The translations under genes were made by a program, and so were the position numbers. Shown here piece after piece: positions 1-5,871 of a DNA stretch of 8,242 bases (position 1 is its first letter; every line of letters begins with the position of its first letter). The DNA comes from Candidatus Wukongarchaeum yapensis (GTDB lineage: Archaea; Asgardarchaeota; Wukongarchaeia; Wukongarchaeales; Wukongarchaeaceae). The stretch is taken from positions 1 to 8,242 of the forward strand of contig JAEOSI010000089.1 in NCBI GenBank assembly GCA_016840425.1. The letters run 5' to 3'. The notes beneath the pieces were generated by a model that was not told the DNA's origin, did not search any database, and saw nothing but the letters and a program-made list of their open reading frames with translations.

Positions 1-1
1 A

Positions 2-265
2 ATCTTGGAAAAAATTCTTTATAACGTGAAAATAACTTATAACAAAGCAAAAATTATTCATTCAGACCTTTCCGAACATAACGTGGTAATTACACCAGAA
101 GAAGACATTTTAATAATTGATTGGCCACAGTTTGTCGTTATCACCCATCCAAATTCCGAATTTTTATTAAGGAGGGATTTAGAAAACATCATAAACTTCT
201 TTCACAGAAAATTTCACATAGAAAAACTTGATGTTCAAACGGTATTAGAATATATATGGGAGTAA
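2..265 (+). CDS. rio2: RIO2-type atypical Ser/Thr kinase, C-terminal part (5'-truncated by window edge)
   Basis: Catalytic loop IIHSDLSEHNV and metal-binding loop IIDWPQ (the DWPQ form is typical of RIO2), followed by HPNSEFLLRRDLENI; TAA at 263-265; frame open to the left edge. Confidence 0.9.
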   Translation: MLEKILYNVKITYNKAKIIHSDLSEHNVVITPEEDILIIDWPQFVVITHPNSEFLLRRDLENIINFFHRKFHIEKLDVQTVLEYIWE

Positions 266-549
266 ATTTTCCCTTATAGAGGTCGAGGTAGTTTTTTTCT
301 TGCTTTGATGTTCTTTCTTCTTTTCCGCTGTGTTTTTTCGTTTTTCTGCGTGGAAACCTGTTTTTTCATCATTTTAGTTTCTTTTTAAAGGTTGTTTTTG
401 TTCTTCATTGTTTTTTCTTTTTTTCGTGAACTTAGAATTTAGAATTTCACTTTCGCTTTTTTTAGTTTTTCTTTTTTATTCGTTTTTAAGCCTAATATAT
501 TCCCTTTTACCCCCCTCTCCTACATAAATAAAAAGGGAGAGACGGAAGT

Positions 550-816
550 AGAGGATATAACCGAACCGTCGTCGGGGTTCAGATCCTACCTCGTTGACCT
601 AACACGTTCGATCCTCGAAAACACTGAAGAACTACGTGAGAATCGTAGCACCAGCCGCAAACAGGTACTATGCGGTGTCGTAGATCTTATAAAGAATGAA
701 GGTCTTTTTACCTTCGAAGGTCAACGATCCAAAGAAAAAACCCTCAAAGGATCAAAGCCTTTAAAAGAGCTCATAAAGGCTTCTGAGGGCGGTTTTCCAG
801 TACCGAGGTAGTACCT
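550..816. ncRNA. Candidate structured non-coding RNA, family unassigned
   Basis: Complementary segments (+ coordinates): 591-600/718-727 (10 bp), 586-593/804-811 (8 bp), 663-670/809-816 (8 bp), 755-763/774-782 (9 bp), 741-746/784-789 (6 bp), 627-636/679-688 (9 of 10), 655-659/671-675, 698-703/710-715, 610-615/748-753, 563-567/576-580. No tRNA, RNase P, SRP or riboswitch signature recognised. Confidence 0.45.
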
Positions 817-856
817 TTTGGCGAGTTTTGAAAACGAGGATGGAGAACACCTAGGT

Positions 857-2971
857 GTGGACATACTGGGCGTGGATATATTAGCAGGCTCTTCTGTTTT
901 TTCAAGACCAAGATATGCCGCGGTTCTTCTGCAAGAAGGTGAGATAATTGACCGTTATCCCGATCTCAGTAAGCGGAGACTTTTAAGACTGATAAGAGAG
1001 TTGTCCCCCTCTTATGTGGCTTCAGACAACATTTTTGAACTGGTTGATGATAGAAGGAAGCTTAGGGCCTTATGCGCTGCTTTTCCGCTCAAAACGAAGC
1101 TGGTACAAGTTACTGGAAGTCCCTATCACGGGTTTAAACCCCTAAGAGAGATCAGTAAGCTTTACAACATCCCCTTCTCAGGGAAACCTAATCCGATGCA
1201 AACAGCAGAAATTGTAGCAAGGCTCGTAGATTTAGGAATAGGTTTCATAGTAGCGCCTTTCACAGATGAAACAAAAATAATCGTATCAAAGAGTCGCCAT
1301 CTAGGCCCTGGAGGTTGGTCTGAAAAACGTTATGCCCGAAAAATTCGGGGCGCAATACAAAAAATGGCAAGAGAAATAACTGAAAAACTTGAAGAAAAGT
1401 CCCTAGATTTTGATTATTATGAAAAACGTTCAGAATTCGGTCTTGATAAAGCGGTTTTTCATGTCTATGCCCCGAAAAAAGAGATTGATTCCTTTATTAA
1501 AAGAATGCGGACAAGCTTAATACAGGTCAAAGTTGAACCAGTGCCAAGTAAAACTACAACTTACCGCCCTATTAATGAAGAAATATTAACGGATTTAGAC
1601 CTTTTTCCTTGGCCTGTTGGAGGAGAAGAAGAAAGGAGGCTTTTACCCTTAATAGTGGGGATAGATGCAGGCACTACGACCGCCATTGCCATAATGGACT
1701 TTTCAGGCAATCTCCTTCACTTGTCAAGTAGTCGTGAATGTTCGAGAAGCGAGATAATAAAACTAATAATAAGGTATGGAAAACCTGCAATAATCGCGTC
1801 AGATGTTCCCCATACCCCCTCATTGTTAGCGAAGTTAGCTGCAACCTTTCAAGTAAAAGTACATAATCCTAAAGAGGATATCGCCGTCAGTGCAAAAACC
1901 GAACTAGTAAACAGTTTTCTCGAGGAAAATATCTTCATAAACGATAAACCAAGTAATGCCCATGAACGTGATGCCTTAACAGCAGCAATCCTTGTCTTTA
2001 AAAACTATAAAAACCTCTTTCAAAAAATAGATTCAAAAATAGAATTACAAAAACTTGGTATAAATCCTGAAGCTGTAAAAGTTTTAGTCATACAAGGAAT
2101 GAAAATCAGTGATGCTATAATGCGAATAGCAAACGAAAAAGCAAAGGAAAAAGAACTCTTAGAAACTATAAGATCAAAAGAAGTTCCACAAGAAAGAGAA
2201 ATCCAAAATGGAGAAAAAATAGACGAAGATACTGACCAGCGCTTAGTTAACCGGTTAAAACGGCGTTTGGACGCCTCAAGAAAACAATATGACTTCCTTG
2301 AACAGCAAAATGAAGAACTTAAACATAAATTAGAAGCAAATCAAAACCGCATATCTGAACTTGAAAAACAGTTGGAATATCTCCGATCAGAAAAAGCTAA
2401 AGATTTAACCATTAAAAGATTGCATATCCAACATCAATTTGAAGTAAAAAGGCTTGAAGAAGGCAAAAAGAATCTCTTTAAAGAGACAGAACTATTAAAA
2501 GATGAAATAAATAGGTTAAAAGAAGCAATATTATTAGCTTCAGATCCCGAATTAGTACCAATAAAAGTTATCCCTGACTTTTCCCTTGAAACAATCGAAA
2601 AAGCTATCACCGAGCTGAAAATCGCGGAAAAAGACATAGTTTTGATAAAAAGTCTTTCAGGGGCAGGTAGTTCCACAGCAAAAATCCTCGCAGAAACTGG
2701 CATAAAAACGATCATAGTCCCAAAATCATCCTCCATCCCTCAAAACGCCCTCTCAATATTAAAAGAAAAAAACACCATCTTACTTGAAGAAGAAAAATTA
2801 GAAATCCTGTTTAAAGAACCTTTTGCTTTCATGAGAAAAAACCTCTTTGAAGAGGCCGTAAAGCAAGCAGAACAAAAACTAGAAGAAGAACAAGAAGGAC
2901 TTCTTAAAGAACGTTTAGGAAAAATGGTAAGCGAATACAGGTTTCTACGCCGAAAAGAACTCACAGAATGA
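857..2971 (+). CDS. DUF460 / COG2433 family protein (two RNase H-like folds plus long coiled coil; predicted RuvC/YqgF-like nuclease)
   Basis: N-terminal ILGVDILAG strand, central IVGIDAGTTTAIA, ASDV and NAHERDALTAA motifs, heptad-rich region around aa 475-575 of the listed ORF. Frame is open from TTG 818; GTG 857 preferred because homologues typically start just before the ILGVDI motif. Confidence 0.85.
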   Translation: MDILGVDILAGSSVFSRPRYAAVLLQEGEIIDRYPDLSKRRLLRLIRELSPSYVASDNIFELVDDRRKLRALCAAFPLKTKLVQVTGSPYHGFKPLREISKLYNIPFSGKPNPMQTAEIVARLVDLGIGFIVAPFTDETKIIVSKSRHLGPGGWSEKRYARKIRGAIQKMAREITEKLEEKSLDFDYYEKRSEFGLDKAVFHVYAPKKEIDSFIKRMRTSLIQVKVEPVPSKTTTYRPINEEILTDLDLFPWPVGGEEERRLLPLIVGIDAGTTTAIAIMDFSGNLLHLSSSRECSRSEIIKLIIRYGKPAIIASDVPHTPSLLAKLAATFQVKVHNPKEDIAVSAKTELVNSFLEENIFINDKPSNAHERDALTAAILVFKNYKNLFQKIDSKIELQKLGINPEAVKVLVIQGMKISDAIMRIANEKAKEKELLETIRSKEVPQEREIQNGEKIDEDTDQRLVNRLKRRLDASRKQYDFLEQQNEELKHKLEANQNRISELEKQLEYLRSEKAKDLTIKRLHIQHQFEVKRLEEGKKNLFKETELLKDEINRLKEAILLASDPELVPIKVIPDFSLETIEKAITELKIAEKDIVLIKSLSGAGSSTAKILAETGIKTIIVPKSSSIPQNALSILKEKNTILLEEEKLEILFKEPFAFMRKNLFEEAVKQAEQKLEEEQEGLLKERLGKMVSEYRFLRRKELTE

Positions 2972-4017: not shown

Positions 4018-5871
4018 ATGAAATCTGAAGAAATAACTGAAGAAAAAACAGTCAAAGTAGAAGAGGAGGAAGAAAAAGAGGAGGAAATCATCAAGAAAAA
4101 AGGATTACGCTTACTTGTTGAACATTCCGACACCGAAGATATAATACTAGGTTCAAAAAACGAACTAAAAAACTATGAGGCTAAAGACACTGCAAGCATA
4201 ATAAACCCCGCAGTAAAAGAAAATGTCTGGAAAATACGTTTTGATGTAGAATCCTCAAACACGAATATGAACCCAGGTTCCTATGCGGTTGGAGACATTT
4301 TAGCTGCAACACACTGGTCCCGAGGGTACGCGCTCAAAACTACTTCTCCCCTCTTAAACCTCAAAGAAGAGATAGACACTGACTTTTCAGACGAAGAGGA
4401 GCTAAACTTTGCAAGAAAAGACTTTATATTCAACAAAATGTGCAAAACACTATTCCGAATAACATTAGAAAATACCCATGAAAACCTCAAATTATCAAAC
4501 ATAAATCTTCAGAAAAAAATGCCCGAAATTCTTGATTTTCCACCAAGAATCCTAGAGCCCTTTAAAGGCAGTATCAACTTTGATGACTTAAACAACTCAA
4601 TAGATTGGAAAATTAAAGAACTAAACCCCGGAGAAACATCAGTTTTAAACGTTGTGGGAGTAGGAAAGATTAACAAATCAGAAAAAATAGGCGCCGGCGA
4701 CATAAACGTAGATTATGAAGTTCATGACGGCGATATATCCAACATAAAATTCTCCCTAGACTCTTTGTGTAGGATAATGTTCTATGTAGAATCAAGCGAA
4801 GCAGAAGAACCTGGAGTCTGGAACTGTATAGCCCAATTTGACGGCAACGATGAATTCGAAACCCTACTAGAACACGTAAAAATTACAAAAGAAGACCAAC
4901 TAGTTCTTGATGAATACCCAAACAAAATAGTGTCTGCCGGAGGAAGTTGGAGTAGCGGATTCCAAGTTAAAAGCGAAGAACTACCTGTTTTCACAAAATC
5001 AATAAAATATCGCATACCTTGGGATATCAAACGCTTAGTTAAAAGCCATATAAGAAAGATTGGGGACCAAATTTCCGTAGTACGCATTACATGTCAAAAA
5101 ACCTTTGTTCCAGAAACTGTGAGAACCTATGCAAGGACAAAAGTAACTATAACCTCCACAGTAACAAACCAAGGAACCTCTAAAATAGACCTCCTAAAAA
5201 TCAAAGAAACAATCCCACCGTATTTCACCTTGGATCCAACTTCAGTCACCGTTACAGCAAATGGTTTTGATTTAAAAGACGCTTTTAGGCTAGAAGGCGG
5301 AACCGGTGATCCTTTGGAAAATAAACCTGTAACTTTCATCCTCGAAAATCTAATCAACAGTAATATAGGGGGTTTAAAGCCAGGATTAACCCTTGCCCTA
5401 AAATACGAAGTAGAAGCAGTAAAACCCGTACCCGGTGAATCATATCATTTTCCCTTAGAAGTTGAAGCTTTTCCTTCACCCTCTACAAAAAACCCTGCCA
5501 CAGCAATAGTCTACACTCCAAAAGGAACGTCTCCAGAAGTCCAGGTCATATACACAAAAAGAAGTATAGGTGTAGGAAAGTCCATAACACATATAGCCGG
5601 AGGAGCTTTCGAAGTAATGCTCTTAATTAAAAACCCCGGCGCAGTAACCCTCGAAGAAATCTTAGTAGAAGACGCCATACCCTACGGCTTTGATTTTGAA
5701 AATTACGAACCAAAAAGCCTTGTTTGCGAATCAAAGGAAGAGGGAAAAGAAAAAACATTCACTTGGAAAATACCAAAAATAGATCCTGGAGCAAAAATCA
5801 TCATAACTTACAATGTAAAAGGAGCGGGAGAACTCCCAAACAAAGAACCAAAAGCAACAGTACTAGGCTAA
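4018..5871 (+). CDS. Hypothetical 617-aa protein with repeated DUF11-like Ig/beta-sandwich modules, acidic N-terminus
   Basis: Long ORF with ATG start. Three segments share the pattern (V/I)xxxxxN...(I/L)xxxxxxxxxP..F...(W/L)xIxx(L/I)xPGxxxx(L/I)x(Y/V)xV at aa ~145-216, ~374-470 and ~531-602. No signal peptide or transmembrane stretch visible. Confidence 0.8.
   Translation: MKSEEITEEKTVKVEEEEEKEEEIIKKKGLRLLVEHSDTEDIILGSKNELKNYEAKDTASIINPAVKENVWKIRFDVESSNTNMNPGSYAVGDILAATHWSRGYALKTTSPLLNLKEEIDTDFSDEEELNFARKDFIFNKMCKTLFRITLENTHENLKLSNINLQKKMPEILDFPPRILEPFKGSINFDDLNNSIDWKIKELNPGETSVLNVVGVGKINKSEKIGAGDINVDYEVHDGDISNIKFSLDSLCRIMFYVESSEAEEPGVWNCIAQFDGNDEFETLLEHVKITKEDQLVLDEYPNKIVSAGGSWSSGFQVKSEELPVFTKSIKYRIPWDIKRLVKSHIRKIGDQISVVRITCQKTFVPETVRTYARTKVTITSTVTNQGTSKIDLLKIKETIPPYFTLDPTSVTVTANGFDLKDAFRLEGGTGDPLENKPVTFILENLINSNIGGLKPGLTLALKYEVEAVKPVPGESYHFPLEVEAFPSPSTKNPATAIVYTPKGTSPEVQVIYTKRSIGVGKSITHIAGGAFEVMLLIKNPGAVTLEEILVEDAIPYGFDFENYEPKSLVCESKEEGKEKTFTWKIPKIDPGAKIIITYNVKGAGELPNKEPKATVLG

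Follow-up and report, generated by a model that had tools for sequence, protein, structure and literature searches.

A probable protein-less TnpB-related element with an omega-RNA-like scaffold upstream of a DUF460 gene in an Asgard archaeon

Positions 292-811 of the window, the whole 8,242-nt stretch of archaeal DNA that was analyzed, probably represent a protein-less, internally deleted TnpB-related element whose core (605-804) most likely encodes a + strand scaffold of the omega-RNA type. The window is contig C77 of an archaeal metagenome-assembled genome (G000; 2.16 Mb, 38% GC) and carries, besides the genes listed in Table 1, genes for a DUF11 protein and ThiC. The nearest named relative, G001 (‘Candidatus Hodarchaeota archaeon DZ1B.339’), is a sister species of the same genus. 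The repeat family to which the element belongs, its insertion boundaries, the empty site in the sister species, the covarying structure of the core together with its strand, and the fold of the partner protein are direct observations. The initial annotation had flagged part of this stretch, whose G+C content is the same as that of coding DNA, as a densely paired RNA-like element on account of its pairing in a single sequence.

The rationale for treating this stretch as an insertion is based on comparison with the sister species. In G001 (contig C18), the region of the spacer between the RIO kinase and DUF460 genes matches window positions 1-291 (91% identity) and 808-1398 (92% identity) without a gap between them and contains no element, such that window positions ~292-811 are a 520-nt insertion that is absent at the orthologous site. 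The empty site in G001 reads ...tagaggttggagtag/gcccttttggcgag..., and the filled site in the window reads ...tagaggtcgaggtag/TTTTTTTC...CCAGTACCGAGGTAG/taccttttggcgag..., with slashes marking the joints. The sequence CGAGGTAG(T) stands on either side of the insertion, and the region is present as a single copy at the empty site. Moreover, the region of the TATA-like box at 273-280 lies just upstream of DUF460 in G001. Judged from sequence, this box is probably the former native DUF460 promoter, now 520 nt further from its gene.

Both ends of the element are kept, the gene is gone, and presence differs between close relatives, as in a protein-less mini-element. The homology of the left-end region (292-434) with the left ends of the copies on contigs C189, C89 and C208 and of canonical TnpB elements is weak and of low complexity. 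The adjoining promoter piece contains a TATA-like TAATATAT at 493-500, reaches the internal deletion junction of this copy at 515-519, and is also found before the ATG of the genes of a 607-aa protein family and of canonical TnpB genes. Contig C208 is bounded by repeat copies, with the same left-end sequence in opposite orientations at its two ends (2-38 and 14669-14705), and the assembly broke there. The locus is present in 20 public runs, and the filled site was recovered on marine-sediment, mangrove and soil metagenome contigs. The empty-site joint was not seen in the DNA contigs of three other studies, all of which carry the filled site. In the single RNA run (metatranscriptome X20), contigs span only positions 873-1200, which are part of DUF460.

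Table 1 Coordinates of the element, its parts and its neighbors in the window
Feature	Position	Strand	Remarks
RIO kinase, gene end	2-265		
TATA-like box CTTATAGA of the original spacer	273-280	+	Read from sequence
Left direct repeat GTCGAGGTAG	282-291	.	CGAGGTAG(T) recurs at 804-812
Whole mini-element, 520 nt	292-811	+	T-rich left end, promoter piece and 3' guide-RNA-like module; no protein gene
T-rich left-end region	292-434	+	Many T5-T8 runs
Left-end promoter piece	435-519	+	94% identical to C110:11566-11651
Open frame, 122 codons	443-811	+	No ATG/GTG/TTG; closed by TAG 809-811; same frame as DUF460
One side of the proposed closing stem, CTACCTCG	586-593	+	Complementary to 804-811 (tRNA nt 3-10 in other copies)
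Conserved core, putative omega-RNA scaffold	605-804	+	Covariance model R1, 216 bits, E 2e-63
Hairpin P1 (632-636/644-648)	632-648	+	CTACG/CGTAG, sequence-invariant
SL1, ‘nexus’-like hairpin (655-659/671-675)	655-675	+	Loop with variable hexamer 664-669 (GGTACT)
SL2, stem 677-688/717-728, inner hairpin 699-702/711-714	677-728	+	94% paired
SL3, right-end hairpin, 735-739 and 741-744 with 786-789 and 792-796	735-796	+	
AGTACC, scaffold 3' end	799-804	+	Pseudoknot with 664-669
Right direct repeat ACCGAGGTAG	802-811	.	Resembles the first 10 nt of tRNA-Phe (GCCGAGGTAG)
Putative guide	805-824	+	Placed by position only
DUF460 gene	818-2971	+	TTG start and first codons common to G001; context, outside the element

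The empty site bears on two readings that arise from the position of the element next to DUF460. One hypothesis, put forward in the initial annotation, is that the DUF460 nuclease has the element as its cognate RNA or is regulated by it in cis; the only observations in favor of this view are that the element lies immediately before the gene and that its structure is real. However, the sister spacer lacks the element although DUF460 is 92% conserved there, which rules out an RNA dedicated to this gene. Moreover, all 16 other copies of the element precede tRNA genes and none precedes DUF460, the conservation anticipated upstream of DUF460 orthologues failed to appear as a covariance-model match near any other DUF460 gene in 41 Asgard genomes, and the element can be traced to the 3' end of a TnpB-like ORF. 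A link to DUF460 is therefore highly improbable, and a false lead is removed in that a DUF460-specific RNA does not exist.

A second hypothesis is that the stretch is coding, either as an N-terminal extension of DUF460 through the TAG at 809-811 or as a separate small protein. A single frame (443-2971) is open for 2.5 kb with this TAG as its sole break, an observation in favor of this hypothesis. Yet the 443-811 portion has no start codon, Pfam finds nothing in it, and the sister species has the same TTG start for DUF460 but lacks the stretch. Variation across the family by codon position is 0.43/0.41/0.37, and this lack of any excess at the third position indicates constraint on nucleotides rather than on an encoded protein. 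The frame from about position 512 is inherited from a TnpB-like ORF and is a remnant of its C-terminal tail, and its phase with DUF460 is coincidental. A coding role is barely conceivable, and the long frame is a coincidence rather than a read-through.

A fundamental question is what the element is a copy of. The core was found ten times in G000, five times in the sister genome and twice elsewhere, and the G000 copies of the window stretch show 81-86% identity. Two full-length copies of ~2 kb (C110:~11566-13559 and C189:~11155-13110) carry intact ORFs of 607 and 615 aa, respectively, and the module comprises the last ~300 nt of these ORFs plus ~10-40 nt beyond. The promoter piece of the window corresponds to the region just upstream of the C110 ORF, and window 515-811 corresponds to C110 13266-13559, which holds the last ~90 codons of the ORF (~295 nt) and the right end. 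Since a left-end piece is fused to a C110-type 3' end, the window copy is an internal-deletion derivative. Other copies share the 3' end and retain the interior from aa 266 (C89), aa 464 (C137), aa 495 (C3) or about aa 547 (C123, C232, C268 and C259), and the short copies start at or just upstream of the 5' end of the core.

In G000, canonical TnpB genes (MKIGYQVISYKFRLYPTKEQ...) lie at C34:~9135-9914, C19:1-1115, C180:~4700-4926 and C109:85-1108, the last being broken into pieces of 129 and 122 aa, and they have the T-rich left end and the promoter piece in common with the 607-aa family, which lacks a Zn ribbon. The full-length C110 copy lacks the left repeat and the greater part of the T-rich left end; a small + strand ORF, assigned by eye as ribbon-helix-helix-like (...ISLPESIANKFREKAYALFGLGKGSLSEAAEEAITDWL...), is found there instead (C110:~11270-11545; L009 ~770-1045).

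A tree of the modules pairs the window copy with that of C189 (support 0.93), and the branch of the window copy is three times longer than that of its sister. Identity between orthologous copies of the two species is 87-95%, whereas no other copy exceeds 86% identity to the window copy. For this reason, a recent jump and an ancient insertion later lost cleanly from G001 are equally likely. The window copy may be a decaying relic, and its long branch was counted against the omega-RNA reading.

A covariance-model search of 41 Asgard genomes located the module in G000 and G001 only, and among the genomes searched the element family is restricted to one Hodarchaeales (Asgard) genus. Protein relatives with 25-33% identity occur in several other Asgard genomes. 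Those in genome G013 (33% identity) belong to ordinary ~1.77-kb TnpB-only elements with no adjoining tRNA and no repeats, which makes association with tRNA genes a trait of a genus-level subfamily. A metagenome scan with a 17-mer yielded one true copy (L095) among the 80 matches listed, and a search for encoding contigs led from P0012 to L183 and from P0007 to none.

The 607-615-aa ORF has no match in a local copy of Pfam, and its NCBIfam matches fall below the cut-offs (TIGR01765, 1e-9; guided_TnpB, 1.6e-5; TIGR01766, 2e-4). Homologues with 37-42% identity are named ‘IS200/IS605 family accessory protein TnpB-related’ or ‘IS605 OrfB’, and more distant homologues gain the OrfB Zn-ribbon domain. 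The AlphaFold model has mostly high pLDDT for residues 1-447 and values below 50 for residues 448-607, a genus-specific tail that overlaps with the repeat module. The top 11 Foldseek matches to this model are all Cas12f (E 1e-9 to 6e-8, prob 1.00), matches to Cas12k and Cas12g structures follow (overall E 1e-9 to 1e-5, prob 1.00), and a PDB profile search returned Cas12f at 3e-4. The assignment of the protein to the TnpB/Cas12 type is based on this fold and on the named homologues, the curated NCBIfam cut-offs being unmet. Alignment of the family shows D294, E356, H423 and R432/R433 to be invariant. The Zn ribbon is missing and the third RuvC Asp is replaced by His-Glu (Gln in some relatives). 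These departures leave the nuclease activity putative and were counted against the omega-RNA reading.

The structure of the module was derived from RNAalifold and a covariance-model alignment of 17 copies. Mean column identity in the core is 87% (14 copies), and the most invariant part is the 5' half of the module (~617-650), located ~155-190 nt from the flank. The strongest structural feature is the pairing of the variable hexamer at 664-669 with positions 799-804. Across the family, 13 of 15 copies pair at all six positions using 13 distinct hexamers, a result that none of 20000 permutations matches, and double changes are seen at five of the six pairs. Because the hexamer resides in the SL1 loop, its pairing with the six bases that immediately precede the flank forms a pseudoknot. 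The SL1 stem, a helix already drawn in the initial annotation, is paired in 94% of family cells, and its closing pair occurs in four types (GC in seven copies, AT in four, CG in three and GT in one). SL2 contains two pairs with double changes and carries an invariant TTATAAA (687-693) on its loop side, and SL3 contains inner stems at 748-750/780-782 and 758-761/776-779 with a TATA-like TTTAAAA in its loop at 760-766.

Statistics over the whole structure were calculated from a family alignment that was fitted to the model, which favors its structure. Of the cells in 53 pairs, 95.3% are paired, compared with 91.8 ± 0.4 in shuffles (17 copies plus a spurious partial row, A4). Double-sided changes are observed in 14 pairs (32 cells), compared with 6.8 ± 2.0 pairs in shuffles. 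None of the 500 shuffles reaches the observed paired cells, double-change pairs, double-change cells or covariation score, and slid controls are at most 51% paired. In the consensus helices, G.T cells number 82 and A.C cells 12, the former including an invariant G.T that closes SL2. This imbalance places the RNA on the + strand, which is the sense strand of the TnpB-like gene, and contradicts the minus-strand preference voiced initially. Inspection by eye revealed no bulge-helix-bulge around the hexamer helix, and a paper on circular archaeal omega-RNAs likewise reports none. A second AGTACC, found at 810-815, 5 nt past the one at 799-804, is absent from all other copies.

How much of the structure proposed from the window by itself is retained by the family? 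The structured RNA-like element as such is conserved and covaries family-wide beyond shuffles, and it is the folding of the single sequence that is weak, since folding of 540-830 gave z values of -2.17 on the + strand and -2.65 on the - strand, which are unremarkable and not decisive. In keeping with the initial description as unassigned, no Rfam family matches at gathering thresholds (HEARO, RNase P, SRP and the IS605-orfB motifs included), and the sole match at E<10 is a chance snoRNA at 418-552, outside the core; this negative outcome was counted against the omega-RNA reading. Helices 698-702/711-715 and 610-615/748-753 are kept across the family, the latter in 96% of cells; this last helix competes with an inner stem of SL3 and could be a second pseudoknot. 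The proposed closing stem, 586-593/804-811, is also kept (86% of family cells paired); it is present in the long copies only, and both of its sides are nearly constant, which places it beyond the reach of covariation. In the long hairpin at 741-789, the outer and core parts, which make up most of it, are retained across the family. Helix 593-600/718-725 is paired in 61% of cells, with two positions paired in 0-1 of 11, and helix 627-636/679-688 shows no covariation and conflicts with the covarying 677-688/717-728; both were dropped. The suggested pairing of 663-670 with 809-816 was correct in recognizing that the loop pairs and incorrect in its register (47% paired), the true partner of 664-669 being 799-804. 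The misregister can be traced to the two occurrences of AGTACC in the window, which allow an 8-bp alternative.

Published omega-RNAs contain three consecutive stem-loops, the first of which (‘nexus’) has a loop that pairs with the 3' end of the scaffold (bioRxiv 10.1101/2023.11.20.567912). TnpB activity requires this pseudoknot, which compensatory mutations can rescue (bioRxiv 10.1101/2023.11.20.567912). Archaeal omega-RNAs show a pseudoknot between a hairpin loop and a transposon-encoded motif together with a right-end hairpin (PMC12558985). With SL1-SL3 and the pseudoknot, the module matches this universal omega-RNA design. The system is consequently not the undescribed one suggested at first: its architecture and its location at the 3' end of a gene with a TnpB/Cas12f fold match those of TnpB omega-RNAs.

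An alternative hypothesis is that the helices belong to a single-stranded DNA right end, recognized by Y1 TnpA, in which an internal DNA guide pairs with the terminal cleavage motif (TEM) as in IS608/IS605. According to passages of bioRxiv 10.1101/2023.11.20.567912, such pairing of an internal guide with the TEM does occur in IS605 right ends. G000 contains one intact Y1 transposase gene, on contig C70 and outside the elements (PF01797, 1.4e-40), the left end is common to canonical TnpB elements, and the clean empty site of the sister species fits seamless excision. However, the IS605 guide abuts the foot of the terminal hairpin, whereas the hexamer described here is in a loop ~65 nt upstream of SL3. 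The abundance of G.T wobble cells, with the SL2-closing G.T invariant, also speaks against this hypothesis, as do the 10-14-nt repeats without a constant 4-5-nt left motif, which are unlike TnpA insertion. We consider a DNA right end distinctly improbable and retain the omega-RNA-type scaffold as the preferred reading.

The flanks of the other copies are of one kind. In an alignment of 15 copies, each of the 14 besides the window copy stops a few bases short of GC[CG]G[GA]GGT, the start of an intron-containing tRNA gene. Two more copies, one from a metagenome and one from another Asgard MAG, are also located before a tRNA, which in the MAG is an intact tRNA-Phe(GAA). A tRNA 5' end thus adjoins all 16 other copies, and the window copy is the one non-tRNA copy. 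The flanks, all of them tRNA 5' ends, differ between these copies only after ~nt 8-10. In G000 the module is found at nine tRNA genes with the GC[CG]G[GA]GGT start and at none of the 19 other tRNA genes detected. A tenth gene with such a start, tRNA-Leu(CAG) (G000:C70:3990-4110, - strand), is intact and begins with GCGGGGGTGACCGAG. Of the module, its final 11 nt (GTTTTTGAGCG) are all that stand before this gene, with an ordinary AT-rich region further upstream; this looks like the footprint of an almost completely deleted element. ARAGORN detects 28 tRNA genes in G000 with the intron option and four without it, and nearly all of them contain at least one intron, often at non-canonical positions. 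Where the others have a tRNA 5' end, the window copy has a tRNA-like decoy, CGAGGTAG, at the promoter of DUF460, and within the genome 12-16-nt seeds of its putative guide are unique to the window site.

Direct repeats of 10-14 nt surround eight copies, with matches of 14/14 (C189), 13/13 (G1_C1), 12/13 (C3), 11/12 (G1_C121), 10/11 (C268 and C259) and 9/10 (C89) and 8-9 nt in the window; these lengths are lower bounds, since the repeat of C89 is shorter than that of its orthologue. A partial second tRNA start is located beside a TATA-like box, upstream of the T-rich left end. IS200/IS605 transposition makes no target-site duplication and inserts 3' of a constant 4-5-nt TAM. The present elements do not carry this TnpA-Y1 signature, as direct repeats are present and the left-junction motif is not constant: the left flanks show no consensus that would qualify as a conserved TAM, the junctions following GTAG, TGAC, AACC, GGCT or CCGA. 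The bases before the would-be target are alike in filled and empty sites (..GC); this likeness, the direct repeats and the absence of a conserved TAM were counted against the omega-RNA reading. The association with tRNA starts, combined with 10-14-nt repeats, is unusual and outside textbook IS200/IS605 behavior, and no TnpB association with tRNA starts was found in literature searches.

Is the module then retained for the benefit of the downstream gene? One hypothesis, which is compatible with a guide RNA, is that the host has exapted the 3' end of the element as a promoter and leader, keeping it for a TATA box and the 5' leader of the gene that follows, once the insertion had severed the tRNA genes (in the window, DUF460) from the promoters they had before. 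The TTATAAA at 687-693 is invariant, and the TATA-like sequence at 760-766 is positioned ~40 nt before the flank, a distance within the range of the boxes before element-free tRNA genes. Long T runs in the left end would stop transcription from the displaced native promoter, and the module is kept at nine of nine tRNA sites, with ORFs that decay differently in the two species. However, the most invariant block and the covarying pseudoknot begin upstream of both TATA boxes, the covariation requires one RNA or one strand spanning 655-804, and tRNA-Leu(CAG) on C70 makes do with 11 nt of the module and an ordinary upstream region. Given an invariant 5' half so far from the flank, a promoter role alone is insufficient, and exaptation is unlikely to be the explanation of the module.

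Transcription, protein binding, guide function and homing of the proposed TnpB-related element can be modeled by analogy with known systems. A + strand RNA would start at the left-end TATA (493-500; predicted start ~520-526) or arise by processing of a longer transcript, and it would fold into the scaffold with the flank, from position 805 onward, in guide position. The TnpB/Cas12f-fold proteins of the intact C110 and C189 copies would bind this RNA in trans. The resulting RNP may cut alleles that lack the element, such that repair from another chromosome copy would restore it, as for IS605 TnpB. RNase P cleavage at tRNA +1 would strip the guide from a module-tRNA co-transcript, and this was counted against the omega-RNA reading. 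A box within the module, either 760-766 or 687-693, probably now drives DUF460, since the element separates the gene from its native TATA (273-280) and starts with T runs. The window copy would in this way illustrate how an element can replace the promoter of a host gene.

We further hypothesize, tentatively and with more doubt than conviction, that the elements carry a built-in address consisting of the first nucleotides of a tRNA. All tRNA genes in the genus that start with GCSGGGGT would have been colonized, the 10-14-nt duplications would keep each tRNA intact, and two intact genes would supply the protein-less cassettes in trans. An off-target jump to the decoy CGAGGTAG would have produced the window copy, and the TATA boxes of the element itself would now drive DUF460 there. 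If this is true, the duplications imply an insertion route other than TnpA, for example staggered RNA-guided cutting followed by capture. As a non-tRNA copy with a matched empty site, the window provides the cleanest material on target choice and entry. Asgard archaea are the group closest to eukaryotes, and the module offers a covariation-backed structure for the putative guide-RNA scaffold of a divergent TnpB clade in this group, which has no Zn ribbon and carries His-Glu at the third RuvC position.

Comparison with known systems places the module closest in design to the TnpB omega-RNAs (reRNAs) of IS200/IS605 and IS607 (ISDra2, PDB 8H1J/8EXA; CboIStron), which are read from the sense strand, overlap the 3' end of a TnpB-type gene and extend to the right end. 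The same holds here, as do the three stem-loops, the pairing of the first loop with the 3' end of the scaffold and the TnpB/Cas12f fold of the partner. However, the module has no sequence or covariance match to Rfam, its scaffold of ~200 nt includes an extra invariant 5' hairpin, and the proteins form a clade without a Zn ribbon and with His-Glu at RuvC-III. The flank, moreover, is nearly always a tRNA start, with 10-14-nt repeats and no evident TAM. PATEs, the protein-less IS200/IS605 mini-elements of Haloquadratum and Natronomonas, resemble the window copy in keeping both ends and the omega-RNA after deletion of the gene and in varying in presence between close relatives. In contrast to PATEs, the copies described here belong to a different TnpB clade and each have a different deletion junction, which suggests separate decay of each copy rather than amplification of a single mini-element.

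Two further systems share the protein fold. Cas12f, which works with an sgRNA (tracrRNA:crRNA), is what the protein most resembles in structure (Foldseek E 1e-9), and passages of bioRxiv 10.1101/2023.11.20.567912 describe a pseudoknot adjacent to the guide in Cas12-family guide RNAs. Unlike Cas12f systems, the present elements have no CRISPR array, repeat or adaptation genes, and the guide would be fixed by the insertion site. TldRs likewise derive from TnpB and use a fixed guide against the 5' region of a host gene, which is the likeness to the arrangement proposed here, and with its altered RuvC-III the present protein might bind without cutting, as in TldR. In contrast to TldR, residues D294 and E356 do not vary, the elements exist in multiple copies with transposon ends and differ in presence between species, and no repression target is evident. 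Ty3 and Dictyostelium TRE5 are retrotransposons that home upstream of tRNA genes by means of Pol III factors. The present elements occupy the same ‘safe haven’ directly before tRNA genes; however, their association follows the first eight bases of the tRNA itself, which points to recognition of nucleic-acid sequence.
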